Positions 22,617 through 64,000 of a stretch of DNA of 64,000 nucleotides are shown here, one piece after another. The translations under genes were made by a program, and so were the position numbers. Source of the DNA: Nemertoderma westbladi (lineage: Eukaryota > Animalia > Xenacoelomorpha); assembly GCA_032718475.1 (NCBI GenBank), contig JAUCBJ010005652.1:62001-126000 (forward strand). Direction: 5' to 3'. Under the pieces are notes generated by a model. It was not told the origin of the DNA and did no database searches. It worked only from the letters and a program-made list of their open reading frames with translations. How positions within the stretch are numbered: the first letter of the stretch is position 1; every line of letters starts with the position of its first letter.

Positions 22617-22823
22617 CTGTGGTACCCACGATGACAAATAGTGTTGGACAGGCGTCCACTGTGGTAGCCACGATGACAAATAGTGTTGGACAGGCGTCCA
22701 CTGTAGTACACATGATGACAAATAGTGTTGGACAGGCGTCCACTGTAGTACCGACGATGACAAATAGTGTTGGACAGGCGTCCACTGTAGTACCCACGAT
22801 GACAAATACTGTTGGACAGGCGT
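22617..22823. repeat. 42-bp minisatellite, right half (~5 units)
   Basis: Same unit and orientation as 21021-21205. Confidence 0.95.
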
Positions 22824-33849: not shown

Positions 33850-34870
33850 TTCCATTGCTTGTCTGACTCGCTTGGCTGGGGTCTCTCAGTGAGGTGAGAG
33901 TTTATTCTATTTGGTTGTCTGACTCGTTGGCTGGGGTCTCCCAGTGAGGTGAGAGTTGATTCCATTGGTTGTCTGACTCACTGGCTGGGCTCTCCCAGTG
34001 AGGTGAGAGTTGATTCCATTGGTTGTCTGACTGGCTGGCTGGGGTCTCTCGGGTAGCAGATAGGAGTAGCGCCCAACTCTACCTTCGGGTAGCAGATAGG
34101 ACTACCAATGAGGTGAGAGTTGATTCCATTGGTTGTCTGACTCGCTGGCTGGGGTCTTCCAGTGAGGTGAGAGTTGATTCCATTGGTTGTCTGACTCGCT
34201 GGCTAGGGTCTCCCAGTGAGGTGAGAGTTGATTCCATTGGTTGTCTGACTCGCTTGGCTGGGGTCTCTCAGTGAGGTGAGAGTTGATTCCATTGGTTGTC
34301 TGACTGGCTGGTTGGGGTCTCCCGCAGTGAGATGATAGTTGATTCCATTGGTTGTCTGACTCACTGGCTGGGCTCTCCCAGTAGGTGAGAGTTATTCCAT
34401 TGGTTGTCTGACTCACTGGCTGGGCTCTCCCAGTGAGGTGAGAGTTGATTCCATTGGTTGTCTGACTGGCTGGCTGGGGTCTCTCGGGTAGCAGATAGGA
34501 GTAGCGCCCAACTCTACCTTCGGGTAGCAGATAGGAGTACCAATGAGGTGAGAGTTGATTCCATTGGTTGTCTGACTCGCTGGCTGGGGTCTTCCAGTGA
34601 GGTGAGAGTTGATTCCATTGGTTGTCTGACTGGCTGGTTGGGGTCTCCCAGTGAGATGATAGTTGATTCCATTGGTTGTCTGACTCACTGGCTGGGCTCT
34701 CCAGTAGGTGAGAGTTATTCCATTGGTTGTCTGACTGGCTATGGCTGGGTCTTCCAGTGGAGGTGAGAGTTGATACTATTTGGTTGTCTGACTCGCTGGC
34801 TAGGGTCTTCCAGTGAGGTGAGAGTTGATTCCATTGGTTGTCTGACTGGGGTCTCCCAGTGAGGTGAGAG
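33850..34870. repeat. 54-bp minisatellite with a 435-bp higher-order duplication
   Basis: GATTCCATTGGTTGTCTGACTCGCTGGCTGGGGTCTCCCAGTGAGGTGAGAGTT tandem; a ~60-bp insert recurs at ~34048 and ~34483. Confidence 0.95.
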
Positions 34871-35237: not shown

Positions 35238-35865
35238 TTTTTGTTTGTGTTGGACAATTAATACATACATTGTTTTGGTGTATATTTGTTATTGTTGTAT
35301 ATAAAAAAAATAGGCGGGAAATTCAAAAGGTTAGATCCAGTGAAGGAGTGAACTGGAATGGTATTGTGAATTTTCAGAATACGGGACGGGTACCCTACGC
35401 CCTCCTCATGTCTGCATGTACCTACTACTGCTTCCTTACTAACTGTGTAACTGTAGTGTCTGCCGGTCTGACTGTACTACAGTATGCAGTACCGGTACTG
35501 CAGTGCAGTTAGGTTGTAATGTTGTAGTAAACTGTACAACCTGTTGCTTGTAGCTGTAGTCCTGTAGACACTTAGTCAGTTAGACAATAGGAGGTCTACA
35601 CCTACATCCAGACAGCTACACCACCCAGCCACCACGCCTACGCCTATCAGCCTACAGGTTCTAGCCAGACAGCTAGATGCTAGAAGCCAGCTAGCAGTGC
35701 AGTAGCCGTGAATACTGAAATAGTCGAGCCCGTGGTCCGCCGATAGTAGTAGTCGAGTAGTCCGTCGATAGTAGTAGTGATCATACTGTCCTACAAAGTA
35801 CAGTAGGCCTACCGGCTACCCTTTTTAAACTTTGCTATAAACATACTGACAGACTGACCAATAAA

Positions 35866-36609
35866 ATGTTATGTTTTAATATATTTAGATTGCGGGTTGT
35901 TGGCAATAACTCCAAACAAAGCTTTAATTTTAAACAAAAAGTCGTTTATAATTCAACTCAGGGACAGAGATTTTCCTTTGAAAATCGCTCACTATTTGTT
36001 TACATGAACCCGCATACCTGTTATGGTAGTTTATATAAAGCGTTTAAAATCGGCGGAGTCTATTCAATAACAAAAAGGAACTTTGCGAATACTGATGATG
36101 ATGTGGAGGAAAACATTGCCGACAATGATGACGAAGAAGATGACCTGGAAGTAGATGATGTGGGGCCGGTAATCGAAAAGGATCCGCGGTTCGCTGGTAT
36201 TCCTTCCTACGATAAAATCAATGTGAGGCTTCAGGGTCATGACTTCCCTGTATTGGAAAACTATTGTCGATTTATTGAGCGGCAAGTTCCCAAACGTTTA
36301 CCTGGTATATATATAGAGGAAATATTTCCTCTTCCAACTAAATTATTGGCAATGAGTTACTTACCAATAGGCGGGGTAAAAATGGAGAACGTTAATTTGA
36401 AGTTGCACGAACGGGTTGTAACTGTGGTCGATCTTCCCACAATAATTGGCCCCATTTTAATAGAGTTTCTCCAATGCAATCTCCCTGAAGGTGTTTCCAT
36501 GCTAATCGAACATTATAATGATTCCTTGTCGGAGCAACGCTATAAGAGTGAAGATGAATTAATTAGAGAGATATCAATGATTGCTGATACTGAAAAGTTT
36601 TTCAAATGA
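35866..36609 (+). CDS. MRPL48: Mitochondrial ribosomal protein mL48 (S10-like fold), single exon
   Basis: INVRLQGHDFPVLENY…PLPTK…HERVV…LQCNLPEGV pattern recalls MRPL48; basic N-terminal presequence-like region. Confidence 0.85.
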   Translation: MLCFNIFRLRVVGNNSKQSFNFKQKVVYNSTQGQRFSFENRSLFVYMNPHTCYGSLYKAFKIGGVYSITKRNFANTDDDVEENIADNDDEEDDLEVDDVGPVIEKDPRFAGIPSYDKINVRLQGHDFPVLENYCRFIERQVPKRLPGIYIEEIFPLPTKLLAMSYLPIGGVKMENVNLKLHERVVTVVDLPTIIGPILIEFLQCNLPEGVSMLIEHYNDSLSEQRYKSEDELIREISMIADTEKFFK

Positions 36610-40070: not shown

Positions 40071-40580
40071 GGCATATTGCATTAGGCTGGCTGTTAGGAA
40101 GTCAGACCAGATACAATCCATCAATTACTACATCAATTTATATTAATTTACTAATAAATCAATTAGCCTATATTCATGTAATAATAATCAATTATAATTT
40201 ATAATTGATCATTATTAAAATGGATTACTGGGGTGTCGTTATAATGCAGTGGTGTCGATCACCCATAGTGGTGGCCATGGCGGTGGATGAACAGGCACTC
40301 ATTGGCTTAAAGAGTTAAAGACCCTAATCGATTATCTCAATCAATTAAATTAATTTTGCTGCAGTTCTTAGATTCTAGTTCAGACTTGTTTGTACATTGT
40401 AGTGATTGCACGGTGACGGTACATGTAGTACGCTGTACTGTAACTAAATATGATGTAGTACTGTACAGTCAGAAGACAGTGTAGCTTAGCTACTGAGCTA
40501 ATTCAGTCAATTTTACTGGATATACCCTACTCAGCTACTGCCGTACAGCTGTACGTACAGCCCTGCAGCCGTATATCATA

Positions 40581-43022
40581 ATGGGGCGCCGAACTGCCAA
40601 GGGACAATCAGGACTCGGTAAAACTATAATGAGAGATAAAAAGAGTTCTGGTATCCATCTCCGTAAAGACGGTTTGGTTAACTATCAACCCCCAGCGACC
40701 GTGGATGCATTGGTTTCGGTAACAGACCAGACCAGTCTGGAGGACTTCCTAACCACCGCCGATCTGGCGGGGCGCGACTTCACTGCTGAGCGCCACAAAA
40801 ACAGCGCGAAAATAATCAACCCCGCATGTGCAGTGGAGTGTGACGCGTCAGAGGATATGTTGAGGAAGCAGGAGAAACTCGCTGATATGGTGCGGATCCC
40901 TCGACGTCCGCCCTGGGACACAACGACCACTCCCGATGAGTTGGAGGCTGCGGAGAGAGAGAGTTTCCTCGACTGGCGTCGGGGGTTGGCCTTGATGCAG
41001 GAGCAGTACGACGTGTTGGTGACTCCTTACGAGAGAAACCTCGAGATTTGGCGTCAGTTGTGGCGGGTCATTGAACGCAGTCACCTCGTTGTACAGATCG
41101 TGGACGCGCGGAATCCCTTGCTCTTCCATTGCGAGGACATCGATAGGTACGTAAAGGAAACCGACTCCAATAAGGTGAACCTCTTGTTACTAAACAAGGC
41201 GGATCTCCTGACAGAGCGACAGCGCCGAAGCTGGGCCGAATACTTCAGTTCCCAGCGGATAAACTTTGCGTTCTGGTCGGCGTCGACTGAGATGGACCTT
41301 GTGGCCTCCTCGGCGTCGGATACGGACTCCGATACCGACAGCTCCGAGGGACCGGATTCCCCGGGGTACGAACTGGTCTCCGGTTCGCGGTTCAACTATA
41401 GAGATGTTGAGGGATTCGCTGACGACCTTCCTGGCGTGGTTAATGAAGGTGTAGAGGAGAACGATAATTATAATGGTGGCACCAAAAGTATGGGGGCCCA
41501 TAAACTCGTCCACGTCCAACAATCTCCTAATTCCTGCAGCTCCTCCTCCCATTCTTCCTCTAGCTCCTCCCGCTCCTCCTCAGCCCGCTCCTCTCCCTTC
41601 CAACCCCCCTCTCCCACCCCCGATTATACCCCCCATGACTGTCTCCCATTGGTCACGATTACCTCGGACCAGCTCTCACTAATAGACCCCCATCGTCCCG
41701 ATGGCAGCGACGACGACTACTACAGGGACTTCGAGGAGCTCTCCGACTACGGCTACCAGCCCCTCCCCGACAACGATGACGATGTGGACTCCGCTGACGA
41801 TATGGAGAGCAATGTTGACAAAGTAATGGAAGAGCCGAAGGCGTTCGAAGCGTTTTCCAACGATATGGAAGTCAACGAAGTAGCTTTGGAGGTTTTAGGT
41901 GTTGAAGCGATGGTGGAGCTGGCTGAGGTCGTAAAGGAAGTCGAAACAACTGGGGTTGTAGATGAGGAAGACGTTGTGACCAGGTACAGCGTTATATCGC
42001 CGGACGTCCACGCAATATTCGACACGAGTAGCGCGGGGAGTGTGGGAGACGTTAACCAAGGAGCGATGGGGGACATGGATGGGGTTGTAGACGAGGAAGT
42101 TATGGAGAACAGCAGCGGTGAGAGCGACACTAACGATCTATCGTACAAGGTACTCAGTGGGGATGAGTTGCTTCGTTTGTTCCGACGGTTGGGATCCGAC
42201 GTACCCCGGACAGGATCCGACGTACCCCGTACCGGATCCGAGACCCCCACACGGCTCACTGTCGGTCTCCTAGGCTATCCTAATGTCGGTAAGAGCTCGA
42301 CCATCAACGCGCTCCTCGCATCCAAGAAGGTCGCTGTGAGCGCGACCCCGGGCCGTACCAAACACCTACAGACGCTCTACGTCTCCGACGACTTGGTGCT
42401 GGCCGACTGCCCCGGCCTGGTCTTCCCTTCCTTCGTCTCCACTAAGGCCGAACTCATCCTTAACGGAGTTCTCTCAGTCGACCAGATGCGGGACTACGTG
42501 GCTCCGGTCGCGTTGCTATGCCAACGCGTACCGCGACCCGTGCTGGCCGGCCTCTACGGGTTCCGGTTGGCCGAAGGTTCCGAGTCCAACAGGATTCCGG
42601 ACGTCCGACCCGCCACTGTTGTGTCGATGACTCACGAATTTCTCGACGCCCACGCAACGTCGCGCGGCTTTATGACGTCACGAGGTCGTCCTGACGGGCA
42701 GCGTTCCGCCAGACTGGTGCTGAAGGACTACGTACAGGCCCGTATAGTCTACTGCCATGCGCCCCCTGGTGTTCCTACCCGCGGCTTCCAGGATTGGATG
42801 AAGTCGCGTGTCTCCCTAGGCAACACAGTGACGTCATCGCCACCACCCACTAAGGAACCGCAGTTGAGTCAGTTTGATAGTCAGTTTTTTTCGGGGCAGC
42901 AGTCGAGACTCGGGGTGAAGGGTAACCGGGTCCCGGGTGCTATGACAACCGGCAGGAAGAGACATAACAATAAGTGTAAAAAGGAAAAGTTAAGACGTGT
43001 TTATAAACATTTGGATCAATAA
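40581..43022 (+). CDS. LSG1: Large subunit GTPase 1 (circularly permuted 60S export GTPase), single exon
   Basis: IPRRPPW, TPYERNLEIWRQLWRVIERS, IVDARNPL, NKADLL (G4), GYPNVGKSS (G1), TPGRTKH (G2), DCPGLVFP (G3), KKEKLRR C-terminus. Confidence 0.97.
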   Translation: MGRRTAKGQSGLGKTIMRDKKSSGIHLRKDGLVNYQPPATVDALVSVTDQTSLEDFLTTADLAGRDFTAERHKNSAKIINPACAVECDASEDMLRKQEKLADMVRIPRRPPWDTTTTPDELEAAERESFLDWRRGLALMQEQYDVLVTPYERNLEIWRQLWRVIERSHLVVQIVDARNPLLFHCEDIDRYVKETDSNKVNLLLLNKADLLTERQRRSWAEYFSSQRINFAFWSASTEMDLVASSASDTDSDTDSSEGPDSPGYELVSGSRFNYRDVEGFADDLPGVVNEGVEENDNYNGGTKSMGAHKLVHVQQSPNSCSSSSHSSSSSSRSSSARSSPFQPPSPTPDYTPHDCLPLVTITSDQLSLIDPHRPDGSDDDYYRDFEELSDYGYQPLPDNDDDVDSADDMESNVDKVMEEPKAFEAFSNDMEVNEVALEVLGVEAMVELAEVVKEVETTGVVDEEDVVTRYSVISPDVHAIFDTSSAGSVGDVNQGAMGDMDGVVDEEVMENSSGESDTNDLSYKVLSGDELLRLFRRLGSDVPRTGSDVPRTGSETPTRLTVGLLGYPNVGKSSTINALLASKKVAVSATPGRTKHLQTLYVSDDLVLADCPGLVFPSFVSTKAELILNGVLSVDQMRDYVAPVALLCQRVPRPVLAGLYGFRLAEGSESNRIPDVRPATVVSMTHEFLDAHATSRGFMTSRGRPDGQRSARLVLKDYVQARIVYCHAPPGVPTRGFQDWMKSRVSLGNTVTSSPPPTKEPQLSQFDSQFFSGQQSRLGVKGNRVPGAMTTGRKRHNNKCKKEKLRRVYKHLDQ

Positions 43023-46066: not shown

Positions 46067-46380
46067 TTGAATAGGCTTTCCAGGATTTGGAAGTCACCTA
46101 GAATTAATCGGAAACTTAAGGTCCGATTATTCAGAGCAGCAGTAGTTCCAGTACTCCTCTACGGGAGTCCATGCTGGGCTCTAACTGCTGAGGACACCAA
46201 ATCTCTGGATGGCACATTCACAAGAATGCTACGCCGGGTTCATTGTGTCAAGTACAATGCACACATCTCCAACCAGACACTATATAACATTGGAGGTGTC
46301 TCATTGGTTCCCCCAAGCTTGACACTAGAACAAAATCGCCTCCGCTTTGCAGGACATTGCTTTCGCCGTGAGGACCAGCC
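46067..46380 (+). mobile_element. RTE LINE 3' fragment, left part (split by BEL copy C)
   Basis: LKVRLFRAAVVPVLLYGS…RLRFAGHCFRREDQP. Confidence 0.85.
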
Positions 46381-47616
46381 TGTTCGCGCTTTTGAAGACC
46401 TTTAGCAGTTTAACCTGCCAAAATTTATATGTCTTTTAGTTAATTAACACACCTTTAGCATACGACAATATTTTATGCTAATAAACAAAACATTAGCCGA
46501 AGCCAGCCCATGCGCGATCATTCACCCGATGGATCTACACCCGGGAGGCTGAATTCGGATGCTTAGATTTTATTATTGCAGTGTAAGGTTGCAGTGTAAG
46601 CCTACTGTATTATTCGATAGATCACTAATAATTAATTTCTGACAGATATTATTAACTTTCGGGAAATATTAACAGTTCCTTTAGGACGTGGCGCTCTATC
46701 TATTTAAACAGAGCTAGGACTTATACTAAACGCAACGATAAGGCTTATGATTAAAGTATAAGTCGCATTCTTTAGGAAATGCTTTGTTACCAGTCACATC
46801 ACACTCACAATCATGCACACTATTCTGCCGACCGTCAGTACATTTGATCACACATGAAGAGAACAGCAATTGACTCAGGTAGTGTCCACTAAATAACATT
46901 AGATTCAATACACACCACATTGATATAAATCGCAATTGTTATATATAGCCCGCCTCTCTAACCTGTAGTGTATCAAGAAAATTGGGAATTTGGGTGATTT
47001 ATCCGTATTATCCAAAGAGCAATATTTCCATCAACAAATAGGTACAATTAATAACTGACGGTAAATAGCAGTACAAACAATATGATTAGTGCAGTTAAAT
47101 TAAGTGAGGTAACACCGCCGCCGGTAACAGTTATACTTTCTATAATCTAAGCAGTTTACTAGAGTTCTTACCAAAAAGCCGGTGTTTCTGGCTTGGACAG
47201 CAATAACAACAAAGTATCAAGTAAAAACAGTAAGACTGAACACTCTCCTTATGATCGGCTGAAAAGCTACACGTCGACAGGAAAAATCGCTCTGATTGGC
47301 TCAAGCCAAACAAAGAACTATGCGTCCAATGGCTGTTTCCATGTCAGCAACCAGCTGTTAGATGTCGTAATATGAATCATCACGGCTAAGCTGTGAAAGG
47401 TAGTTGGTGCATTACAGGTTTTTTGCTTTACCATGTCCGCCAAAACACGTATATAGCAGAATGATTTTTATGTCCGTTAAAACACCTGTAACGGTACCTT
47501 GCGGGCGAGGGGAATATATATACAGTTAGAGAACCTTTTTAGAGTATTCCAGCGCCTGGGGGGAAACTGGATTGCGAAGCAAAAGGGGCCAGTTATATCC
47601 CACAGAAGCTTTTACA
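46381..47616 (-). repeat. 3' LTR of copy C (1236 bp)
   Basis: TG…CA termini; PPT-like GGGAGCGG adjacent on the minus strand. Confidence 0.96.
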
Positions 47617-47694
47617 CCGCTCCCAGAAAATGGGATTTAAGTCTATAAAATATACAAAATCACAGTTTCTCAAATACGAAAATACTCTAAACAG

Positions 47695-48347
47695 TTAGTC
47701 TTTCATGCGCGGACGGCGTTTACGCAGTTTTTTAAAGCTAGCCAGAGTCTTTTTCTCTTTGGGGCGAGCCACTTTACAAGGAGGGCTATAACTCCTGGGT
47801 GAAGGGTGCAACATGATTGCATCAGAGGGTATAGGATTATGGTCGGTGTATCCGCCAGTCGAAGTGCCGAGTTGATTGACATCAACGTCGGGGGAGAGGG
47901 GTCTAACGGCTTTGAGAGCTCGTTTCAAGACAGCCGCTCTTACGGGTCCTTTACGAGTGGTCTGAATGAGGGCCGTGGGTGGACCATAGGCAGTTAGAAA
48001 CTTCCTTGGTTTAATGGTTCTTTCCAACTCGCGTTCGCGGGCTCGGTACTCGTAAGGCCGTCGATATACTTCCTGTAACTCGATATGCGTGATTTCTGTT
48101 CGACAGAAGCGAATAGATAAGGATGGAACGCATAAATTCCTTCGTAAGCGCGTCCAAGATAATAGCGATGGCGCGAATCACGATGTAAATCAGCGTTCGC
48201 TTCCCAAGCTCTAATGTAACGTAGTGTGATCATTTCATCTACGCTTTCCAAATCGCGATTAAAAGGGCAATCGAAACTGGCGTGTCCCTTTAGTGGACAG
48301 TGGTGACATTGAGTCATAAATTGAGGGTAAACCGCAAAAATATGCAA
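47695..48347 (-). CDS. Accessory ORFs of copy C: 117 aa with a CCHC knuckle (47994-48347), overlapping a 110-aa basic ORF (47695-48027)
   Basis: C-HH-C-PLKG-H-ASFD-C fits CX2CX4HX4C; C-terminal KKLRKRRPR shared with copy A. Confidence 0.5.
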
Positions 48348-48684
48348 ATTATTAAATCTGCAATACGCTCAATAAATTTCCATCGCCGGTTGTTCGTGGA
48401 AATAGGAACAGCGGACGTTTGTGTCCATGGGCGTAACATGGTCTCTCGATGCGCATAACCGACAACGTTGCCGAGAAACATAGTTGGCATGGCGATAATC
48501 GTACGCAGTGAGACACTGTGGACCTTGATACCATTCTAGGATGTAATCGTTGTCGCTGTTCCGAGCGCGATAGGCTGAATCTCCTCAGATTCTAGGCATA
48601 TTGGTTCGTCTTCCCAGTCTGTTACGAATATAATTTTCGTGATCTATTCTCGGTTTATCGTTACGACTCCGCTGGGTATGATAT

Positions 48685-48958
48685 TTAAATAGAACCATTT
48701 CCCTTTAGGGTGTCTACATCGTCCGTATCATGTAAATCGATAGGATGGCCGGTAGTTAAGAAGTCCATACACGTACCATTACGATGCGTATAGCGAGCGG
48801 TTAATTTTCGATAGTCCAATTCACGCGTAAGTTGCTCTTGGGACATCGGCGGTTCGATATAACGACCATCGTCCTCCGTAATAGTCGGATCGGCTTCACC
48901 GCGTATCAAGCTATCCACAAACGCTAATACCAAGGTCATCTTCTATTAATTCCGTCAT
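48685..48958 (-). pseudogene. Conserved accessory ORF of copy C (homologue of 5625-5928)
   Basis: AFVDSLIRGEADPTITEDDGRYIEPPMSQEQLTRELDYRK…TTGHPIDLH; the ATG at 48958 is out of frame because of a short deletion. Confidence 0.65.
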
Positions 48959-50584
48959 ATCTGCTATCTGAGTTTATTAATATTAGTATGAGTCAATATT
49001 TAGGCAAGCGGGCGTCGCTGCCTACTAGTCTTTGACCCCGGACAGTGGGTTTCTCAGCGCCGATGTACCGTTGTAGCGGTGTTTGCGCCAACATGTAGCA
49101 ACAGCACGACAACGATAATCGACACAAGTCCCACCACTGTCCGTCCCAAAGGCTTGAATCCACTTGAGGTTATCTCGGTAGAGTTAGGCTACTTTACAAT
49201 TGCGATTAGCTACTGTAAACACACTTTAGTAGTATCATTCACCTATAAACGCACAAATTCCATACAATCATTACTTACTGCACACATGCAAGCCATTTTG
49301 TCCGTTAGTCATTGTCTTCCAGAATGTCACGTTATTACTATGTATCCTTGGATACTAATAGTGCGCTATGTATTCTCTTATGCTACGCAATGGGGCAAGC
49401 CTTTATTGTTCCTTTAACTTGCTTCTAATTCCAGCGTGGGTGTTGCCATGGTGACATTATGGAAAACTAGCGGTAGAATTAGGGTAATTCTCATGCATAC
49501 AGATCTGGGATGTTATTTAATAGTAATTCTTTAATTGTCAATATCCTCTTTATGCATGATTTTATAAATTTTATCGGCTATTGACTATATGTTGGAGATT
49601 CTCACACTCTAATACACTCAATATGAATCTCCGCTCCCATGATCTATTAATTACTGGAATTTTGGGAATGTTATAAATTGCACAAAATGACAATTTATGA
49701 AATTCATTTGAATATGAATTTAAATTTATTCCCGTGAATTTTATTATTTGATGTTAAATTGACACAAATTTTATTCCAGAGCATATCTGGGGACTTAGGA
49801 TCCTTAATTCTATAAAATAGTCCTTCTAAGAATATCGGTAAATACTGCGATATCTTAATTGACTAGAAATTTTAAAGGATCGGGATTTTACAGATTTTAA
49901 TAAATATTAAATTAATATTTAGGATGGGCACCGATTTATTCCAGAACTTGTCTGGGGACATTAACCACTGATTCTAGAATTTGTCTTTCAAGTATATCGG
50001 TGGGTGCCGCGATATCTTAATCGACTAGAATTACAGGTGGTCAAAGGGTTTAACAGATTTATTTTGCGTTATACGCTACTGTTAAAGGGACATCACGCTA
50101 CTATATGTATTATTTAATATAAGGTAGAAGAGCAATATCGCACGAAGCAATGTCAGTGTGAAGAGGCAAGTCGTTTCCAAGGTCTACCCAGAGCTTGGTT
50201 TAGCCGAGACACGAGGATCTGAACTTTGCATTCCTAATACTCTGCCTACCAATAATACTTAAATATAGTAGTGGCTTTATTGTACTTTAATAAGTACGGA
50301 CATTTCATCTTACTGTAGTCACGTATTTATAATATGATACGGACAGTAAGGAAAGAGAAAAAATAATTATTTCTCGCCGTCGCACTAAATATATATTATA
50401 AATAATTACGTACGTAATAAACGCTAATATATTGCACTAATCTACTAAATAATCCCTAAAATAACATTCTACCAAATAAAATTAAAGAAAACGATTATAA
50501 TAATATTACGTAATAATACATACATAAATATAAAATAAAAAACAAATATAAAATGATATAGTCACACACCCACTCCATATGTTA

Positions 50585-53500
50585 TTATGTTATGGAGTCC
50601 CTAGATATTTGTCGGATTAGGGAAGTGGTCGTAGGAAGAGTATCTTGCCTTCCATAGTTTCCGGACAGTTTTTGGTCTCTTTCCAGTAAACATAAACGAC
50701 CAGCTGGGTGATTGGGTTGTCGTGTTACTTTCTCCGCTCCCTTGGCCTGTCTAATCTCAGCCGGGTTAAGGTGGGGAGGCCATTCATCTTCTTCTTTACT
50801 TAGGGAGTCGGGTCCACCTAACCAGCCTGGAGTATCTATCAGTTCTTGAGGAGTTGCTCCTCTGGAAGCGATGTCGGCTGGATTAATCGTCCCAAGGCAA
50901 TGTCTCCATTGATCTACATTGGAGTTAATATCGTCATTATCTGAGGAGTATGGTGTTCCCTCAGTTGGGTCGTCCACATCACTGCTCTCCACTTCCCCCT
51001 TTACTTGGTATACCTGTTGTTGAGGTAATCTCTCTTTGAGAGTTCTACGGGAAGGGCCAGTGAAGTACCAACCTACTCTAGTTCTTACCGCATAGGTTTG
51101 TAGTGGCTGTGGTTGAGCAGGCCGTTTCTCTAATGGCTCGAGCGCCTCATGCGCGTTTTGGCCGATGAGTATTTGCACTCCAGGATAATCGGTTTGGAAT
51201 CGAGGTATCTCAAGATGTTGGATGCACTCGTCCTCGTCCCAGTTATAAGGTTCTGCTTGAGTAGTAGCAAAGTTCTTTATAGCCACCATTTTTACTGACC
51301 TTATACCTTGTGTTCCTAACTTATCCTGGGGGGTGGACAACACACCTACATAGTAATCTGCCGTTAGGGTAGATTTCCAAACCTGCATAATTCCTGACAT
51401 ATTCAATTTAGTCCGGAACTTGGGTTGTCCAGCAAAGATATCTTCGGCTAGTTCTTGATCGATGAATGTTCCTGTGATGCCGGAGTCAAGTAGGGCGTTC
51501 ACTATGTAACTCTTGTTGGGACCATGAACTCGAACTTGCACTACAGGAAATTCTCTTATTCCTATGTTGGAAGTTGGAACTTTCCAAGATGGTTGTTTGT
51601 CAAAAGGAGTTGGAGTAAACTCGTCAGTGTCCTTTTCATCCGTAAGTGCTCGATACACTGTGGTATTTATTAGATAACAGGATTCGTTGGCATCGGAGAA
51701 TTCGTCTGTATAGAATCCTTCCCACTCAGAACCTTGGTCAGTGTCGTTCACATCACTGAATTGGACATGTAATTCGGGCTCACTTACCTGACTCGGGTTG
51801 TCTCGTTCGAACTCACTGTGTAACAAAATGTGATGTTTCGCGCCACACTTTGCACACTTTGCGTCGGAGTAACAGGTTCGCCGTTGGTGTCCTGATCTGA
51901 GGCAATTATAGCATAACCGCTTATTCCACAGGACTGTACGTCTGTCTACAGGGGATTTCTTTAGAAATTCAGCACACGCACTCAAACGGTGAGGCCCGTC
52001 GCACAGCGCACATTTTGGTTTGATGTTACTCACCTTAACTTGGTTAACGTTATGCACTCTCGTTCTTTCTTCGGGCTTTCTTCCGTGAATTCTCTTAGGA
52101 GACGTAGGAGGAGTTGTTGTTACCTGTTCTCTCCTGTCACTGGTTCGAGACTTGTATTTACTTACGTCTTTATAGGTCTTGTTGTCATAGTAAGATTTTG
52201 CTGTGTCTTTCCCGCTGTCCTCTTCTTGAGAAGCTTGGCTTTCGCCGTCGTCAGTATAACACACTGGTATTATCCTTCTCCTAGAATCGGGTTTCTCACT
52301 TACCTTATTTTCCGATGTTTTCTCTCTGGCCTGCCTTATAAGTTGTAATTTTACTTCACTATCTAAGAAAGACATGAGATCAGCCATGGTAGGACTTCGT
52401 CGTTGTTGTTCATTCATGTACAACACTTTCTTGTCCCAGCGTGTACATACTCCACCCTTTGGTAAAGTAGAGACTACGGCTCCAATAACCATGGAACTCT
52501 GATATTCATGCGACTTACCTAACCAGTCCAGTTGTCTACAGATCTCTTGAATTTCATCGGAAAACTCTATAATCCCGCTACTAAGGAAGTGTCGGGGGGC
52601 TACTAATTTTGCATACAAATACTTAGCTATGTTATCCTTGTTACCATACCTGATGTTTAGTGTATCCCAAACTTGTCTTAATCCATCTGGATGTCCAATA
52701 AACTTTAACGCCATTAACTTGGGAGGTCCTTCCAAGCACTTGATGAGGAATCTAAGTTTCTCTCCGTTAGATAGTACAGAGTTCTGTATGCTATCTTTGT
52801 AATATTCGTTGAAAGGTAACCATTTCATCTCATCTCCATTGAATTTGACGATCTCTCCCACTTTGACCGCTTGGCGGGCTTCTGTTCTAGCCATCTGACG
52901 CGTAAAGCTTTCTTGGACCATCGTGTTATTTAATATCGAATTATCGGTATATAAATTTCTCGGATCATTATCAGGTCTATAGGGAATATCATTAATAACA
53001 GGTTTATAATCACCCTTAATAGGGTTTGCTATAGGAGTTTCAACTTCACTAGCAGTATAGATGCGTGTAGGCTCCACACCTTGCGCATGTAGTACTTCAG
53101 ACCTAACAGGTTGACACAATGTTACAGGGGGTATTGGTATGCCCTTTTGGATATTGACTAATTTGTCGCGTTCTAGTGCGATACTTTGCTGCACTTCTTG
53201 CAACTCTGCTCTACCTTCCCTCACTGTTCCCTTAAGTTGGTGGACAGTCTCCTGCATCTGTCCCAGCAGGAGATTCATCCCCCGCCGTCCCTCTTCCACC
53301 CACTCAACCGCCAAAGCGGGAGTCGCCAACATAGTAGCGGGCTGACGCGGGACGACGGGAGACAAATTATTGATTTCTCTCTCTGCTATCTGGACAGGGG
53401 TATTTGCATGGACTGTTCCACCGGGTACAGGCAGTGTAGTACTATGTAAAGGGAATTTAGAGTTAAGCTCTGGAAGTACAGGGGTCTCTAACACAGAAGT

Positions 53501-54784
53501 GACTTTGGGAACGACAGGCCTAATTATTTCAGGCTCATCAACTATTGTAGGGAGTCTTGTGACCTGAATAATTTGTTCTGTGGGTTCTGTACTACCTAAA
53601 TCTGTGCTAGTTAGCTGTCTTTTAACAGCGGGGGGCAAATCAGGCAGTTTATGACGGTGAGATGTTTTTCTACGCCTGCTTAGACGAGATCTATTTCCTC
53701 CGCCTTCAGGATCGGTGGTCTCGCCTTCCTCCGATGATGTGTATCCTTGGCGCTTGGGAGTAGATCGACTCATCATCTGCATTTGATTAGCAGTAAACTG
53801 TTTATTTATACTGTCTTGTGTCTCTTGCAGATTTTCCAACTCCAGTTGGGTAGTCTGCTCAGAGGCTCTCCGTTCTGCTTCGGCCACTGCCCTTTCCGCC
53901 TTTGCTTCTGCCGCCGCTGCCTTTCTTTTTGCTTCTGCTTCTGCCGCTGCTGCCCTTGCTGCTATTCTTTCTGCTTCTACTTCTGCCGCCGCTGCCTTTC
54001 TTTCTGCTTCTGCTTCTGCCATAGCCGCCGCCTTTTGTTCCTCTATCCTTCTTTTCTTTATTTGTTCTTCTCGGACTCTAATGAGGCGGAGTTTTTCATC
54101 ACATTCAGCTTGGTTTGCAGCTAACATTTCGGCATCGATTGCGTCCAACACAAGCTTGGTTCCTTCACTATTAGGGGAAAGTCCAGACAGCCGTCTCCTC
54201 AACTCTTCGTCTCCTAGGAATCGCTGATAGTCGGACAAATAAATGTCGATAGCGTCTCTAGTTCGCGGCTTCTCTGCTGATGTTAATTCGCTTTCCACTT
54301 CGCTTTCCACCTCGCTTTCCACTTCGCCTTCCACCTCACTTTCCACTTCGCCTTCCACCTCACTTTCCACTTGAGAAGAAGTGGCGTCGGTTGATTCCCC
54401 ACAGGCTGGCCGCCCATCATAAACCGTATCCGCCATCTTCGCTCCGCGTTCGGGCGTCCGCTCAACAGTATCCGAACTACTGGAGCTATCGGGCCGCTGA
54501 GAACTAGGTTCTTGGCTAGGAGGTTGCTGCTGTTTTATAGCTTCTTCTTGATCCCGCTTGACTTGGGCCCGAGTGCCTATGGCAGACCAACGGCGCTTCA
54601 CTAACTTCGCAAATTGCGAAATCTTTTCTACCAACCTAGGTTCTGTCACAATCACCGCAGGGGTTGCCCTTCTTACAGTATGAGGGGTTTCAGACCTCGG
54701 TCTGGGATTCTCTACACTTTGATCCGAGAAACAGGCTGTTGTTTCTAGGAGACTATCTGACAGAGTTTGCCTTGTGTCAGCCAT
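50585..54784 (-). CDS. gag: Open gag-protease ORF (1399 aa) fused in frame to two small pol remnants; RT, most of RNase H and IN are deleted
   Basis: CALCDGPH..C, CYNCLRSGH..C, CAKCGAKHH..LH, LLDSG; junctions SDNDDI/NSNVDQWRHC and GAEKV/TRQPNHPAGRLCLL. Confidence 0.9.
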   Translation of the reverse strand: MADTRQTLSDSLLETTACFSDQSVENPRPRSETPHTVRRATPAVIVTEPRLVEKISQFAKLVKRRWSAIGTRAQVKRDQEEAIKQQQPPSQEPSSQRPDSSSSSDTVERTPERGAKMADTVYDGRPACGESTDATSSQVESEVEGEVESEVEGEVESEVESEVESELTSAEKPRTRDAIDIYLSDYQRFLGDEELRRRLSGLSPNSEGTKLVLDAIDAEMLAANQAECDEKLRLIRVREEQIKKRRIEEQKAAAMAEAEAERKAAAAEVEAERIAARAAAAEAEAKRKAAAAEAKAERAVAEAERRASEQTTQLELENLQETQDSINKQFTANQMQMMSRSTPKRQGYTSSEEGETTDPEGGGNRSRLSRRRKTSHRHKLPDLPPAVKRQLTSTDLGSTEPTEQIIQVTRLPTIVDEPEIIRPVVPKVTSVLETPVLPELNSKFPLHSTTLPVPGGTVHANTPVQIAEREINNLSPVVPRQPATMLATPALAVEWVEEGRRGMNLLLGQMQETVHQLKGTVREGRAELQEVQQSIALERDKLVNIQKGIPIPPVTLCQPVRSEVLHAQGVEPTRIYTASEVETPIANPIKGDYKPVINDIPYRPDNDPRNLYTDNSILNNTMVQESFTRQMARTEARQAVKVGEIVKFNGDEMKWLPFNEYYKDSIQNSVLSNGEKLRFLIKCLEGPPKLMALKFIGHPDGLRQVWDTLNIRYGNKDNIAKYLYAKLVAPRHFLSSGIIEFSDEIQEICRQLDWLGKSHEYQSSMVIGAVVSTLPKGGVCTRWDKKVLYMNEQQRRSPTMADLMSFLDSEVKLQLIRQAREKTSENKVSEKPDSRRRIIPVCYTDDGESQASQEEDSGKDTAKSYYDNKTYKDVSKYKSRTSDRREQVTTTPPTSPKRIHGRKPEERTRVHNVNQVKVSNIKPKCALCDGPHRLSACAEFLKKSPVDRRTVLWNKRLCYNCLRSGHQRRTCYSDAKCAKCGAKHHILLHSEFERDNPSQVSEPELHVQFSDVNDTDQGSEWEGFYTDEFSDANESCYLINTTVYRALTDEKDTDEFTPTPFDKQPSWKVPTSNIGIREFPVVQVRVHGPNKSYIVNALLDSGITGTFIDQELAEDIFAGQPKFRTKLNMSGIMQVWKSTLTADYYVGVLSTPQDKLGTQGIRSVKMVAIKNFATTQAEPYNWDEDECIQHLEIPRFQTDYPGVQILIGQNAHEALEPLEKRPAQPQPLQTYAVRTRVGWYFTGPSRRTLKERLPQQQVYQVKGEVESSDVDDPTEGTPYSSDNDDINSNVDQWRHCLGTINPADIASRGATPQELIDTPGWLGGPDSLSKEEDEWPPHLNPAEIRQAKGAEKVTRQPNHPAGRLCLLERDQKLSGNYGRQDTLPTTTSLIRQISRDSIT
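54288..54371. repeat. 12-bp coding tandem repeat (VESE/VEGE)
   Basis: TTCCACYTCGCY units. Confidence 0.85.
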
Positions 54785-56129
54785 GTTTGATTGTACAGTC
54801 GAATGCCTACTGCTATATTACAGTTAAAGCAAGTCTAGTAATTCAGTATCACTGTTAGCCTAATAATTAATTACCGATACTGCTACTCAGTGTAGCGTGA
54901 TATATATATAATATATTAGAATACCGGTATGCTTATAATATATATATAAGTATTATTACAGACTAGATTTGTCACAGAGTACCGGTATATAATTTTAGCA
55001 CAAATATATATAAATATATAATAGGCCTATCGTGAATACCGGTATACAGCCTACACTTATAGTATATAAGTATAATTCTGGACTATAATTAATTACAGAG
55101 TACCGGTATGATTTCAGCACAAATTTATAGAAATAAATATAATAAGCCTATGGTAAGTACCGGTATGTCAATTATTTTTAGAATAATTGAATTCCTGAAT
55201 ATTTTAGGGTTACTTAGTTACTTTAACTTACTTTATTACCGTTATTTAAGCAGTAGTCCAACTGATATTGAGACCTAGTTGTTGTATGGCAGGCCTACTA
55301 TTTATAAATCGTTTGAGTTGATTTATAATATTTATATACCCGTTTAAATGGGTTTTTGTCAATATTTGAAATAAATGTTATTATTTCTGGGGGTCACTAC
55401 ACGGAAGCTGTGCACTCTCAGTGAAGTGCTATTTATTTGACACTAAAACTGATAATTCTAATTTACCTAAGTTACTTAATACTACGAATTACTTACGATA
55501 CGGGTGAGATTAATTCTCTAATTAAACACAACAAAATATTACGTACGAAATTTTTTAGGGTAATTTTACAGGAAGTCTACAAACCAGTCCAACAAAGGGT
55601 TAGATTTCTGGCTATTACAAAGGACAGGGTACTACGGTATTTAAATAATAAGTAGTAGTAAATATATTGTACTGTCCAGATAGGAAAATACCACCGCCTG
55701 ACGACCTATAACCGTATCGCTATAGGTACTACGTTATGTATCACGGATTGTTCCTACCCAGAAGCTAATAGAGCTAACGAATGTGCCTATCAACCACTTT
55801 ACAACACAAATATACTGCCTACACTAATTACTTTGGAAAGCACTGTACACTAAACCCTAAATTAGGTACAAGTACCGGTATAACAAATAATCAGTAGTTA
55901 AATATACTTGAACAGTTAAAAGAACCACGGCATCTGCTGGAGTGACCGAAGCACAAAGTCGTCAGTCTTTACCTACGCCAAGCAGCCCTGATGTAGTACC
56001 GGGGTTAGTTTAACTATAACGGTATGTATAACAAGCACAATTACTGTAGGAATAAACTTGGGGACATGAATGTTGCGAATAATCGCATAAACTCTGAATA
56101 ATAAATATTACGCTACCCGTACAGAATAC

Positions 56130-56670
56130 TCAAACAAATACAAACCAAACGCTGGCAGACTACTATTAAGCCTAAACAAACTACAGTATATGTGCAGATT
56201 CTGAAACTGTTAGTTAGTATGCGTTCTAACACGGTAGTACGACTTACTCTTTAAGAGGGGATTGTCCTTACAGCATATGGCTGCCCCAACTTACTAACGG
56301 CACTTGATCAGACCAACTCTACACACGCAGCAATCCCTTCAGACCCAAAAATAGCCAGACAACAATCCAGCCTACAAAATATTTGAGTAATAACTATTAC
56401 GGTACCTGAACAGACCACACAAACAAACACAGACTAAAACACTGGCAGACTACGATCAAGCCTAAACAAACTACAGTATGTGCAGATTCTGAGACTGTTA
56501 GTTAGTATGCGTTCTAACACGGTAGTACGACTTATTCTTTAAGAGGGGATTGACCTTCAGCATATGGCTGCCCCAACTTACTAACGGCACTTGATCAGAC
56601 CAACTCTACACACGCCGTAATCTCTCCAAACTCAACAACAGTCAGACAGCAGCTCAGCCTACAATTATCT
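56130..56670. repeat. ~290-bp tandem duplication in the copy C 5' UTR
   Basis: CTGGCAGACTAC…GCCTAAACAAACTACAGTAT…CCAACTCTACACACG occurs twice; single copy in B. Confidence 0.85.
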
Positions 56671-57039
56671 GAACAATCTGAGCAGGGTCACACGCCTTCT
56701 GCTCAATATTAGCCTACTAGTAAATAAAACCGACAGAAATAAGTAAACTATACAAAAGAATGAGGGGTGATCAATCCCTATTCCCCTGGCAGCCTACAAT
56801 ATACAATAGATCACAATCGAAATAATACTAAATGTACTTGTACAGCAGTACCGGTACCGGTGATGACAGTTAGGCCTACTGACCTACAGAAGTACCGGTT
56901 CAGTTTTACCGGTCACTACGGTATTTTGCAACCTTATTGCTTACTGCAATAAGATCGATAACTGTTACTGTTCGACAGAACAGTATTAAACTGTATTTAA
57001 TGCCTACACTTGCAACCTTATTGCTTACTGCAATAAGAT

Positions 57040-57051
57040 TATAACTGTTAC
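57040..57051 (-). promoter_or_regulatory. Non-tRNA primer-binding site of copy C (sense GTAACAGTTATA), complementary to its own LTR at 57795-57806
   Basis: Abuts the LTR CA end; no TGG; exact 12-nt reverse complement inside the LTR. Confidence 0.75.
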
Positions 57052-58287
57052 TGTTCGCGCTTTTGAAGACCTTTAGCAGTTTAACCTGCCAAAATTTATA
57101 TGTCTTTTAGTTAATTAACACACCTTTAGCATACGACAATATTTTATGCTAATAAACAAAACATTAGCCGAAGCCAGCCCATGCGCGATCATTCACCCGA
57201 TGGATCTACACCCGGGAGGCTGAATTCGGATGCTTAGATTTTATTATTGCAGTGTAAGGTTGCAGTGTAAGCCTACTGTATTATTCGATAGATCACTAAT
57301 AATTAATTTCTGACAGATATTATTAACTTTCGGGAAATATTAACAGTTCCTTTAGGACGTGGCGCTCTATCTATTTAAACAGAGCTAGGACTTATACTAA
57401 ACGCAACGATAAGGCTTATGATTAAAGTATAAGTCGCATTCTTTAGGAAATGCTTTGTTACCAGTCACATCACACTCACAATCATGCACACTATTCTGCC
57501 GACCGTCAGTACATTTGATCACACATGAAGAGAACAGCAATTGACTCAGGTAGTGTCCACTAAATAACATTAGATTCAATACACACCACATTGATATAAA
57601 TCGCAATTGTTATATATAGCCCGCCTCTCTAACCTGTAGTGTATCAAGAAAATTGGGAATTTGGGTGATTTATCCGTATTATCCAAAGAGCAATATTTCC
57701 ATCAACAAATAGGTACAATTAATAACTGACGGTAAATAGCAGTACAAACAATATGATTAGTGCAGTTAAATTAAGTGAGGTAACACCGCCGCCGGTAACA
57801 GTTATACTTTCTATAATCTAAGCAGTTTACTAGAGTTCTTACCAAAAAGCCGGTGTTTCTGGCTTGGACAGCAATAACAACAAAGTATCAAGTAAAAACA
57901 GTAAGACTGAACACTCTCCTTATGATCGGCTGAAAAGCTACACGTCGACAGGAAAAATCGCTCTGATTGGCTCAAGCCAAACAAAGAACTATGCGTCCAA
58001 TGGCTGTTTCCATGTCAGCAACCAGCTGTTAGATGTCGTAATATGAATCATCACGGCTAAGCTGTGAAAGGTAGTTGGTGCATTACAGGTTTTTTGCTTT
58101 ACCATGTCCGCCAAAACACGTATATAGCAGAATGATTTTTATGTCCGTTAAAACACCTGTAACGGTACCTTGCGGGCGAGGGGAATATATATACAGTTAG
58201 AGAACCTTTTTAGAGTATTCCAGCGCCTGGGGGGAAACTGGATTGCGAAGCAAAAGGGGCCAGTTATATCCCACAGAAGCTTTTACA
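57052..58287 (-). repeat. 5' LTR of copy C (1236 bp)
   Basis: Direct repeat of 46381-47616. Confidence 0.96.
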
Positions 58288-58517
58288 CAGCCAGTGCATA
58301 ATCTTGTACTTTGGCAGCCTCATGGAGTGAATAAGCATGGTGGACAGCCATGACTTTCTTGAGACGCATCTTAAAGGACACTGGCCTTAAAGATGCGGAT
58401 GATCTAGCAAATGTCATGGGTGATAGGGAGTTGTGGCGGTGCAATTTTGTTGACTAGCCGGCACAGCATTCTTAAAAATGCAGCTGCAATGCAGCATGCC
58501 GATCCTAGTAGTAGTAG
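58288..58517 (+). mobile_element. RTE LINE 3' fragment, right part, with (TAG)n tail
   Basis: VHNLVLWQPHG continuation; CCTAGTAGTAGTAGT end. Confidence 0.82.
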
Positions 58518-58589: not shown

Positions 58590-61500
58590 GCCAGTATGTT
58601 TCGAGTTTTATAACGCCAATAAACCCCAAAACCAACCCCAAAACCCATGTCCCACTCTCGACGCCCGAATTTCTGCCACCGAAGTTACAGAACCCAGTTA
58701 AACATGAGTATGTGTTTCATATATGGTTGCCATAAATAATTCGACATGTGATACATATATGTAAATGTTACAGTGTTGTCAAATGTGATCCATATGTGGA
58801 ATGTTCACATGTGATACACATATGTTTTTTATGTGACAAGTGCGACAAAAAGAGTAAAAATTTAAACTGAGACCGACCAATCACTGGTGTGGGTCTGCAT
58901 TTCCTATAGAGAGGTGGGGCGGGGGGGGGGGGGTAGCCTACCTCAGTACCATTATCCTATCCAATCCCTACACCCTATCCTACGGCCCTACACCTACCCT
59001 ATACATTTAGAGAAGGAAGCATCGGAGTATATATGACAATATTTAATCCATAGTGATATGAGAGTATCCTTAATAGATTTTGGTGATGATCCGTAAATTC
59101 GTATTCTATTAGTTAGATTTAATTAAGTTATCTAATTTCCAGCTATAATAGATTATTCATTTTGATAAATCTTCGAAAATTAATTAATTCTAAGATCATA
59201 TAATTGCTCATATGATATTTTATATCTAATTTTAAGACATCTTTTCCCTACAACATATATATACCACATATGAAACATATGTTCAATTTTTTAACGGGAT
59301 AAGAACTGCAATAGGCCTGCCTACCTTACGGATGGTATAGTGCATGTATGTTATCTGTCTATGTCTGTACCCCTTACTGATACTTAGCAGCGCAGATGAC
59401 AATGCACAACCACAACCTGACAAGTGAAAACCACCATACAGTCATACATATGTTTGTCTAATTCTGTTAATACAGCACTGTACAGTGCAAATGGACAGCA
59501 CAATGTGCATAGTGCAAGGCAGAAAGCAGGCAAGTCACACACTGCATCACTGAACAATTGAGTCAGTGAGTGGACTATGATAAGCGGTAGGCTTATGCAA
59601 CGCATTATGCTGTTATGGGTAAAATATAAAATAATTCGCGATTCACTAGCTAAACTGCAAGCGACACGACGTGGTTAAGAAGAAAGATTGGAGGATCAGA
59701 CTATGAAATGCCTATCATTTTAAGAATGTGTCCCACCACCAGCCCTCAAATGCAATAAACAAAACAATTGGACGATCGACTATGGTTACTTCAATTTAGT
59801 GTCCATACAGCCTTCACAGATCATTCAAACCTTATAGCAGGCCTATGTCTGTATGTATTGATTATACATTATATGGTTAAATAGCCGGTACTTTGAAAAT
59901 ACAGTATAACAAAAAATATAGATTCAACGTATTATACTGCTGATTAAAACGATATTTGTTCTTAATGCAAAAAGCTGAGTAGTGACATCAAGAAATTCCG
60001 CATCCCCCCTCGTTATTCTTTTCTGTACATGTATTACTGTAAGGACTGTATTACCATAAGGCAAACATGTGTGCAACATATAAAATCCATGAACTGGATT
60101 ACAAAATTACGAATTGAATAGTTTATAGATTGAAATTTAACTTCGGAGTCTTGGCTATGGCTATTTCACATATGCTCGACATATATTATTCACATGCGCA
60201 TTCTCACACATTTATTTATGATAAATCATGTAAATTCATATGTGCAACATATAAATACCATAAATGGCGATACACACATTCTAAGTGTATGTATCACCGC
60301 ATGCGTGACATGTATTATTCATACATGAGCATAAAAACCCAATTTCCAGACACACCTATTCCATACAACATATATATACCACATATGAAACATAAGTTCA
60401 TGTTTAACTGGGAAGCAGTCAAAGACCAGAAAGCCCATAAGGCAGCTGGTCCAGACAGAATAACCAACGAAATATTAAAATCCGGTTTTGGGTTATTATT
60501 ACCCTACTTACTTGCTTTATTCTCTTTGTGCTTTAATTGTGCCTGTTGCCCAGTTTCGTGGTTAGCGTCGTATCTACTACCACTTTACAAGGGAAAAGGC
60601 CCCAAGTGCTCTCCTGATAGTTATCGGGGTATAGCGATACTTTCTTGTTTACTCAAAACTTACACCGCCATTCTATTTACTAGACTTTATACGTGGGCGG
60701 AGTCTCATTTTATTTTACCGGTCCAGCAGTTCGGCTTTCGAAAAAAGCATTCCACAAAAATGGCTGTCAATTTACTGTATAACTTCATTCATACATCGCT
60801 ACAACCCGCAGGTGGTCATGTGTATTGTGTTTTTGTTGATTTTACCAAAGCTTTTGACTCCGTTAACAGGCAAAAACTTTGTTTTAAATTATCTCGTTTC
60901 GGTGTCAGCAAACATTTTATATCCTGTATTTGGGCCCTTATTGCTATTAATTTTGTCTACATTTGTGTTGGTGCATACGTTCTACAGCCGATAATTCAGA
61001 CCATTGGTGTTGTGCAAGGGGATAAACTTTCACCTCTTTTATTTAGTTTGTTTGTTGCAGATCTACCTAGTATTTTAGTTGCAGCTGGCTGCCTTGTTAT
61101 TATGATGCCGACGACCTGGCAATAGATGGTAACTCGATTGTTGACGTACAAAATGGTCTTGATTCTCTAGTTGACTATTGTAAGGTAAATGACCTAACCG
61201 TCAATTTATCCAAAACCAAAGCCATAAAATTTCGCCGGGGAGGTCGCATGTGTAACAATGATGTTCTAATTTACAAAGGTACGAAGATCGAATTTGTCAG
61301 TGAGTTTAATTATCTCGGTACAACTCTCTCAACCAAAAATGGCCCCAGCGGTCACTTCGCGCACTTGCACAAAAGGGGTCTGGCATGCTGTGTCCACTTA
61401 GCCTCGAAAATAAATATGTATCTGATCTCCTTAGACTCAGCAAAACGTCTATGGCTCTCGGTGGTCTTCCCTGCAGTCACCCATGGGTGCGATATTTTCA

Positions 61501-62040
61501 CACCCTCCGAGAACATTGCCGTTCTAGAACATGTTCGCAAATGTCGCGCCTTTTATTTTAAACTGTGGTGTGGAGTAAGCAAGTTCTCCTCCTCCACTGC
61601 GATACTAGACGCCGTAGACAACGTCGTCAACCCCGATTGTGACATCAGGTTGGGAGGCCTGTCCGGCTTCCGCCGCCGTGCAGCGGCGTTGCTTCTCTCC
61701 AACGGGTGTCATCAGACTCTTTGCAGCAGTCCCAACTGTTGGAAAGCGGATGATGGTTGCATCTGCTTGCTGTGCATCAATCCGGCTGACACTAAATTGC
61801 ACTTCAAATCTTGCCCTGGCATTCCCCCATGCGCGACTGACCTTCGATGCGCTCTTTTCCTTCTCACCCTGGGTCTCCCCAAATAATTATTTTTATCACT
61901 GTTTGCCATATTTTAATCGCCTTATATTTTTCTGCCACTGTATATTTAAATTATATGAATTCATACGTAGGCTACTTACTGTATTGTATATAATTATATT
62001 ACTCGTATGAGTGTTACCCTGTTACCCATTTGTATTATTA
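58590..62040 (+). mobile_element. 5'-truncated LINE (RT, RTEX-like), frameshifted, split by a CMC element; both ends approximate
   Basis: LDARISATEVTE (to 58692) rejoins AVKDQKAHKAAGPDRI (after 60412); YRGIA, VDFTKAFDSV, GVVQGDKLSP, ADDL, FNYLG. Confidence 0.85.
58693..60412. mobile_element. Non-autonomous CMC/EnSpm-like element
   Basis: 14-bp TIR CCCAGTTAAACATG/CATGTTTAACTGGG; 2-bp TSD AA; CATATG-rich subterminal repeats; excision restores the LINE frame. Confidence 0.85.
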
Positions 62041-63405: not shown

Positions 63406-64000
63406 TGTTCGCGCTTTCAGACCTTTGGCAGTTTAACCCGCCAAATTAGGATGTCTTCTAGATAATAAATCACCTTTAGCCTATGACAAGTATTTAATTC
63501 ACTACACTAGTCGAAACCAATCTGTGCGCGATCATTCACCCGTTGGATATACCCGGGAGATTGGGTTCGACGGCTTAATTTTATTGCTATGTAAGCCTAA
63601 TGTATTATTCGACTGACAGTATTATATAATCTCTGACAATATTATTCACCTTCGGGAAATATTAACAGTTCCTTTAGGACGTGGCGCTCTATCTATATAA
63701 ACAGAGTTATGACTTAAACTACTCACAACGATATGGCTTAGTTACAATTCACATATATGGCGCATTCTTTAGGAAATGCTTCGTTATCAGTCTCACTCAT
63801 ACACAATGCTGCACAATACTGCACACTGATCTGCCGATCTTCACTGATTTTAGTCACATATAAAAGGAACACGGACCGAATCATGTAGGGTCTATCAAAT
63901 AACATTAGATTCACTTCAAACCACTCAACATAGGTCGCAATCATTTATCTGTAACCTTTCTCTCTTACCTTCGGTATATCAAGAATATTGGGTTTTCGGG
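63406..64000 (-). repeat. BEL LTR copy D (A-subfamily; 3' LTR or solo LTR), runs off the window
   Basis: Near-identical reverse complement of ~7615-8208; its flank has no PBS or hairpin. Confidence 0.92.

Follow-up and report, generated by a model that had tools for sequence, protein, structure and literature searches.

A BEL/Pao retrotransposon family of Nemertoderma westbladi with a primer binding site complementary to its own LTR: evidence pointing to self-priming

Results

The window, by which we mean the whole stretch of 64,000 nucleotides analysed here, contains four pieces of one LTR retrotransposon family, called A, B, C and D. The features used in this study are as follows, where PBS stands for primer binding site.

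58287-46381, minus strand: copy C, from LTR to LTR
57052-58287, minus strand: 5′ LTR of C, 1236 bp, TG..CA, identical to the 3′ LTR (46381-47616)
57795-57805, minus strand: candidate self-primer of C (the 11-mer), ATAACTGTTAC, complement of the PBS, with a homologous site in A and B
57041-57051, minus strand: PBS of C, GTAACAGTTAT, abutting the terminal CA of the LTR, no TGG
57966-57970, minus strand: CCAAT box, conserved with B
57905-57910, minus strand: initiator-like TCAGT, a rival transcription start 103 nt upstream of the 11-mer
57627-57636, minus strand: donor-like AG/GT(A/T)AG, conserved in A, B, C and D, downstream of the primer
57240-57245, minus strand: likely polyadenylation signal AATAAA (aligned site AATAAA in A, AATAAG in B)
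57055-57191, minus strand: predicted U5 structure, closed at the LTR tip by pairing of an invariant TCGCGC (within 57183-57191) with GCGCGA (57055-57060)
57015-57039, minus strand: hairpin directly 3′ of the PBS of C, from fold and sequence
56931-56974, minus strand: leader duplicate in C, consisting of LTR tip, 11-nt PBS (56958-56968) and hairpin
50585-54817, minus strand: gag-protease ORF of C, with DUF1759, triple Cys-His box and ALLDSG
46381-47629, minus strand: polypurine tract (47617-47629) and 3′ LTR of C
18573-19795, minus strand: copy B, with 5′ LTR (19795-18584), candidate primer AAATCTATTAT (19383-19373) and PBS ATAATAGATTT (18583-18573)
2-3949, plus strand: pol region of copy A, with RT (YMDD), RNase H region (Peptidase_A17), integrase zinc finger and DUF5641
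7034-8208, plus strand: 3′ LTR of copy A, with the homologous 11-mer ATATCCGTTAT at 7459-7469
63406-64000, minus strand: D, an A-type LTR end, 97% identical to A, with no PBS after it, cut by the window edge

Copy C is flanked on both sides by the target site duplication (TSD) GGCTG (58288-58292 and 46376-46380). Since its LTRs are identical and its TSD is intact, the cis signals of C were probably working recently. The ORF of C encodes 1410 amino acids. Near 50917 it switches abruptly to the final part of RNase H, and RT, integrase and most of RNase H are absent from C. A hairpin related to the one after the PBS of C, and one pair longer, follows the PBS of B. The leader duplicate (56926-56974, minus strand) is also present in contigs of three runs and is therefore a subfamily trait. 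Approximately 3 kb lie between integrase and the 3′ LTR (3950-7030, plus strand, in A; 47620-50580, minus strand, in C). Over 2.2 kb, the regions of A and C show about 83% similarity. They hold no long ORF, a Pfam search of them gave no match, and they are possibly a decayed extra gene.

Copy B is split by a LINE and by copy A, which interrupts it at 8209. The LINE (9807-12785, minus strand) has an APE endonuclease and an RT in a 992-aa open frame. Copy A has only its 3′ LTR in the window and its PBS outside, leaving two complete PBS/LTR pairs, those of B and C. The window also holds tandem arrays of 43, 30, 42 and 54 bp (29118-31805, 21643-22302, 20927-21249, 22550-22914 and 33873-34870), and next to the 43-bp array is a frame that matches glycosyl hydrolase 20 (31780-33561). 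Frames with GTPase (MMR_HSR1) and ribosomal S10 matches, at 40497-43022 and 35761-36609 on the plus strand, are either host genes or processed copies. The window has two more reverse transcriptase fragments, at 25790-27040 and 60118-61886, both on the plus strand. No tRNA genes were found in the window, and an Rfam scan of 55000-58400 gave no meaningful match.

The initial annotation had assigned the family to BEL/Pao, and this assignment was confirmed. Across the window family we found DUF1759, Peptidase_A17, Integrase_H2C2 and DUF5641, the BEL-specific set in PR-RT-RH-IN order, and a triple Cys-His box and an LLDxG protease motif were read in translation. RT was recognised from its YMDD motif and its 40-52% identity to BEL homologues; Pfam RVT_1 did not score on the ORF. 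All 77 homologues returned (30-49% identity) were BEL-type by precomputed domains or alignment. A chromodomain search gave no match, and BEL domains were present instead of the Ty3/gypsy chromovirus pol of the Tf1/sushi group. In trees from RT, alone or with RNase H, whose references include no named Sinbad or Suzu elements, the family stood apart from the insect BEL rows, with or beside aquatic-animal elements and on a long branch. It shares with the Belpaoviridae and the Sinbad-like aquatic elements the gag-PR-RT-RH-IN order, the triple Cys-His box and the 5-bp TSD, and with Sinbad the ALLDSG protease motif given in the available part of that paper (PMC554778). In the ICTV description, Belpaoviridae carry an 18-nt PBS for tRNA-Arg or tRNA-Gly (PMC8742986). 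This PBS, which is a described trait of the Belpaoviridae and not the basis of our placement, is absent from the window family.

What follows the 5′ LTR of C instead is a sequence complementary to the LTR itself. The 12 nt 3′ of the LTR (57051-57040) are the reverse complement of 57806-57795, a segment that is unique in the LTR and starts 755 nt before its end, and B has an 11-nt match at the homologous site. Coordinates and letters of the site in C, and its counterpart in B, had been given in the initial annotation and were borne out when the sequence was re-read and compared with shuffles and mock LTR ends. The match of 12 nt described there stands for C, where 57806 gives a twelfth pair, but the shared core is 11 nt, as the twelfth pair is absent in B and in the duplicate PBS of the C leader. 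In both B and C, pairing ends exactly at the terminal CA. No TGG was found in the 40 nt after the 5′ LTRs of B and C, in agreement with the reported lack of a tRNA-type PBS. Four positions distinguish the 11-mer of B from that of C, and at all four the PBS of the same element carries the matching change. Cognate duplexes had energies of -11.7 and -8.0 kcal/mol, compared to -3.8 and +0.1 kcal/mol for swapped ones, which upholds the proposal of compensatory change between the two copies.

The sequence is AT-rich, which favors the explanation that the match is a chance inverted repeat or a DNA-level feature without a priming role. Shuffled sequences matched in 7 of 20,000 cases for the C 12-mer, 17 of 20,000 for the C 11-mer and 25 of 20,000 for B. 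With mock LTR ends at every window position, 11-mers matched at 71 of 62,752 positions on the plus strand and 72 of 62,752 on the minus strand. The chance of a complement anchored at a true LTR end is about 1 in 1000 for each of B and C, and the flanks of the 3′ LTRs, used as controls, gave matches of at most 5 nt (C) and under 5 nt (A). These frequencies and the homologous position with four compensated changes argue against chance. The complementarity between PBS and LTR is a real, non-chance feature.

Predicted folds point to an RNA start near the 11-mer, while promoter motifs point to one about 100 nt upstream. The CCAAT box said to lie upstream of the 11-mer is present, and its distance was put at 165-171 nt in C and B. 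TCAGT is found about 60 nt downstream of CCAAT in B and C, and in all three LTRs it precedes the 11-mer by 79-113 nt (at -103 in C, and at -113/-109 and -79 in the other two). The TATA-like motif previously noted near the 11-mer lies at about -11 and was found as TTATAG in C and TTATAA in A, but it is altered in B (TTACAA); in A and C it would place the start downstream of the 11-mer. The AATAAA, about 190 nt before the LTR end, places the 11-mer upstream of the R/U5 border. For the donor-like motif, no conserved acceptor partner was found within the LTR. RNAalifold on four sequences predicted the U5 stem in all four with a covariation term of only -0.75 kcal/mol, and its inner hairpin (57074-57091) is kept by G-U/G-C exchanges. 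When folded from the 11-mer through the PBS, the RNA had a pairing probability of 1.0 in C and 0.93 in B, compared to 0.08 and 0.00 when folded from TCAGT. When the start is moved upstream, pairing between 11-mer and PBS persists to 85 nt in C and to only 15 nt in B, which loses the duplex at 20 nt; long-range folds such as these are fragile.

A start at TCAGT about 100 nt upstream would give self-priming from a longer capped primer with the 11-mer as its 3′ end, acting in cis or as a second RNA, and with a 3′ end made by RT cleavage or by poly(A)-type cleavage. The positions of TCAGT with CCAAT upstream favor this explanation. So does ATTATA/ATTACA at about -12 in A, B and C, which is presumably a weak variant of the poly(A) signal. 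Evidence against a longer primer is that the predicted pairing is lost from an upstream start, allowing for the fragility of such folds, that neither B nor the duplicate PBS pairs beyond 11 nt, and that a stronger AATAAA lies far downstream.

A narrow RT alignment was used to retrieve further BEL elements, of which 6 lie in genome contigs and 79 in metagenome contigs (the best 80 of at least 532 confirmed stretches). These relatives are animal-type elements with 35-52% RT identity; many are near-duplicates, and they probably come from few hosts. Sixteen of the 85 loci had too little upstream DNA, which left 69 testable loci. Viral contigs searched for relatives gave none, and the LTR motif of the window family was not found in metagenome contigs. 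Six of the loci (L001-L006) are BEL elements, some with paired LTRs, within contigs deposited as bacterial genomes, and P0015 carries a Streptococcus label; these most likely reflect host contamination.

Among the relatives listed, none of the 14 LTR ends fixed by a second LTR copy was followed by a TGG site. In 26 of the 69 testable loci listed, the LTR contains an intron, and the PBS is complementary to the junction of the two exons that flank it. A locus was counted if the site lay 0-3 nt after CA or TA, 11-15 nt were paired, and the LTR held a GT(A/G)AG-type donor and a pyrimidine-rich YAG acceptor. The same search with reversed, uncomplemented sites, a control that differs in base composition, gave no junction match in 69 loci. 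All but one of the 14 fixed LTR ends fall among the 26 loci. These include L009, L014, L024, L031, L034, L046, L052 and L057, and the intron is kept in both LTRs; in L016, one LTR has an intact donor and the other an intact acceptor. The junction primer of L006 was found by hand, while candidate matches in L074, L054, L075/L078 and L003 were inspected and not accepted. L003 (1561-3189) has LTRs of more than 1.6 kb with a clear CCAAT/TATA promoter and internal donors, and its LTR end and PBS are not fixed. Self-complementarity is thus found in further BEL lineages, as the initial annotation had anticipated.

Contiguous 11-mer matches at loci without a fixed LTR end were found in 32 of the 69 loci listed and in 26 for the control and are therefore uninformative. 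This favors a chance origin for unanchored matches, but the junction matches (26 compared to 0) are impossible at the DNA level. As an explanation of the window sites, chance or a DNA-level feature is already largely refuted, and we consider it extremely improbable. A complement that arises only through splicing can function only at the RNA level. If plus-strand synthesis copies the primer into the PBS, as in standard LTR replication, a PBS complementary to a splice junction would be a record of a spliced RNA primer, and this would be the strongest argument that such sites prime.

A hand list of 19 related families held 15 distinct 11-mers. The primer 3′ end is AC in 15 families and AT in two (17 of 19), as in A, B and C, and a poly(A) signal lies downstream of the primer in 16 of 19. 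Among the same 19, a poly(A)-like hexamer occurs in the 60 nt before the donor in only one, which is a further point against poly(A)-type cleavage of a longer primer, and no initiator or TATA was found at a consistent position upstream of the donors. Only 3-10 nt of exon 1 pair in the spliced relatives, and a first exon of 3-10 nt is unlikely, which speaks for a longer primer. The same is true of L011 and L013, where further pairs can form beyond a 4-nt bulge. On balance, we regard the longer primer as unlikely and prefer a primer at or near the 5′ end of the RNA.

In the window family the primer is contiguous in A, B and C, unlike the intron-split primer of the relatives. A spliced primer was also sought in B and C and rejected; C offered only weak GC/GT donors adding 1-2 nt, and B offered none. 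Two related groups, L011 and L013/L036, have apparently contiguous primers with two compensated differences, judged by eye at LTR ends not fixed by a second copy. A quick tree from RT alone grouped the window family with L011/L013/L036 (SH-aLRT 82), while a tree from RT and RNase H placed it beside the whole relative group with a long-branch warning. The trees fit both intron loss and an ancestral intron-less state of the window family.

The PBS of the A type was predicted beforehand from the 11-mer of A, and one contig of run X4 agrees with it at 9 of the 10 letters shown. The contig runs from the LTR end into the PBS and then into the family’s post-PBS hairpin, and it has a letter unique to the A type. 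Its first base probably also differs, the contig does not show its own LTR site and the run bears another organism label, and the agreement is partial support. PBS variants are common in family contigs, mainly a change of the first base from G to A (about 30% of summed depth in run X1) and one extra T (about 32%). Both were seen at the C junction across four runs, in contigs that do not link them to LTR partner sites, which is a possible objection to self-priming. The G-to-A variant would fit primers ending in T, as in A and B. The summed depth of the family was very high in two of the four runs.

These unlinked variants could indicate that a host RNA (a tRNA half, a tRNA fragment or another small RNA) primes and that the duplex of LTR and PBS serves as a structural switch in packaging or translation. 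Priming from internal tRNA sequence is known in copia, according to the available parts of two sources (PMC6317226, PMC5445492). Each of the 15 distinct 11-mers in the 19 families, and those of B and C, is matched by its own LTR and would need a separate host RNA. The exact register at the LTR end and the shared AC/AT end are also what a primer needs. We therefore consider priming by a host RNA improbable.

Discussion

From the sequence evidence, we estimate a probability of about 0.8 that this BEL/Pao family self-primes minus-strand DNA from its own RNA in some form. A Tf1-like form, with the primer at or near the RNA 5′ end, is probable. Transcription would start at or slightly upstream of the 11-mer, and a loop of about 750 nt in the genomic RNA would bring the 11-mer to the PBS for pairing, with the U5 stem at the LTR tip assisting. 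The primer would act in cis. RT/RNase H would cut after the final AC/AU of the 11-mer, leaving the primer for strong-stop DNA; for C, these enzymes would be supplied in trans, borrowed from an autonomous relative. The strong-stop DNA would then jump to the 3′ R, and the primer sequence would be inherited through the 3′ LTR. Plus-strand synthesis would copy the primer and rewrite the PBS in each cycle, as in standard LTR replication, which would explain the perfect covariation.

Self-priming has been demonstrated for Tf1, with predictions for Tj1, Tcn1 and copia TAR, in the portions of the literature available (PMC4600332, PMC7175516, bioRxiv 2022.12.06.519325, PMC6317226). The initial annotation had credited self-priming to Tf1/sushi elements only, and the predictions for Tcn1 and TAR make that background incomplete. 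The primer of Tf1 consists of the first 11 nt of its mRNA. In Tf1, RNase H cuts between bases 11 and 12, as given in the accessible text of PMC7175516. Like Tf1, Tf2 and Tj1, which are Tf1/sushi elements (Ty3/gypsy chromoviruses), the window family has an 11-nt LTR segment complementary to a PBS beside the terminal CA and lacks a tRNA site; the U5 stem adjoining the PBS in Tf1 also has a counterpart, only predicted in the window family (same partial texts of PMC7175516 and bioRxiv 2022.12.06.519325). Unlike Tf1, the window family belongs to another superfamily (DUF1759, Peptidase_A17, DUF5641) and has a loop of about 750 nt, its start at the primer is putative, and its relatives build the primer by splicing. 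Where Tf1 has the third duplex of its “pretzel”, 3′ of the PBS, the window family has a local hairpin.

The plant elements Tcn1 (gypsy) and TAR, Houba and Osr-1 (copia) carry a stretch of 10 nt or more that begins 0-5 nt downstream of the 5′ LTR and is complementary to the LTR, as in the window family. They belong to other superfamilies, and the available part of the source describes no intron-built primer for them (PMC6317226). The fungal GalEa copia elements also lack a tRNA PBS and have a “conserved hairpin site” adjoining the 5′ LTR. In the accessible part of that paper, the site has no LTR complement (PMC5445492), whereas the PBS that precedes the hairpin in the window family has such a complement. 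In a literature search of a limited library, no report of self-priming in BEL/Pao was found, and an earlier mention is possible. The available portions of the Sinbad paper (PMC554778) and the de la Chaux paper (PMC3118150) contained no statement on PBS or tRNA. The finding is likely a known mechanism, published for gypsy and predicted for copia, now in a superfamily described as tRNA-primed.

The initial annotation had considered a single lineage with possibly acquired LTRs. This was not supported in that form, since a tRNA site is also absent from many distant BEL families, most of which build the complement across an intron, suggesting that the trait is old within part of BEL/Pao. The window family looks like an intron-less form of a wider tRNA-independent system. 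We give slightly better than even odds to a broader scenario, in which a large BEL/Pao branch gave up tRNA priming long ago. In most of its families, splicing of an LTR intron would build the primer, so that splicing licenses reverse transcription, while the window family and a few others would carry a ready-made primer across a 750-nt loop.

The paired site supplies exact, testable coordinates. Annotation tools that require a tRNA site would under-call such elements, and priming without tRNA would also evade host control by tRNA fragments. If true, self-priming extends to a third LTR superfamily, and the ICTV account of BEL/Pao as tRNA-primed would be overturned for a broad aquatic-animal branch. 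Three separate occurrences would bear on whether self-priming or tRNA priming is ancestral, a question raised in the available text of PMC3601003.
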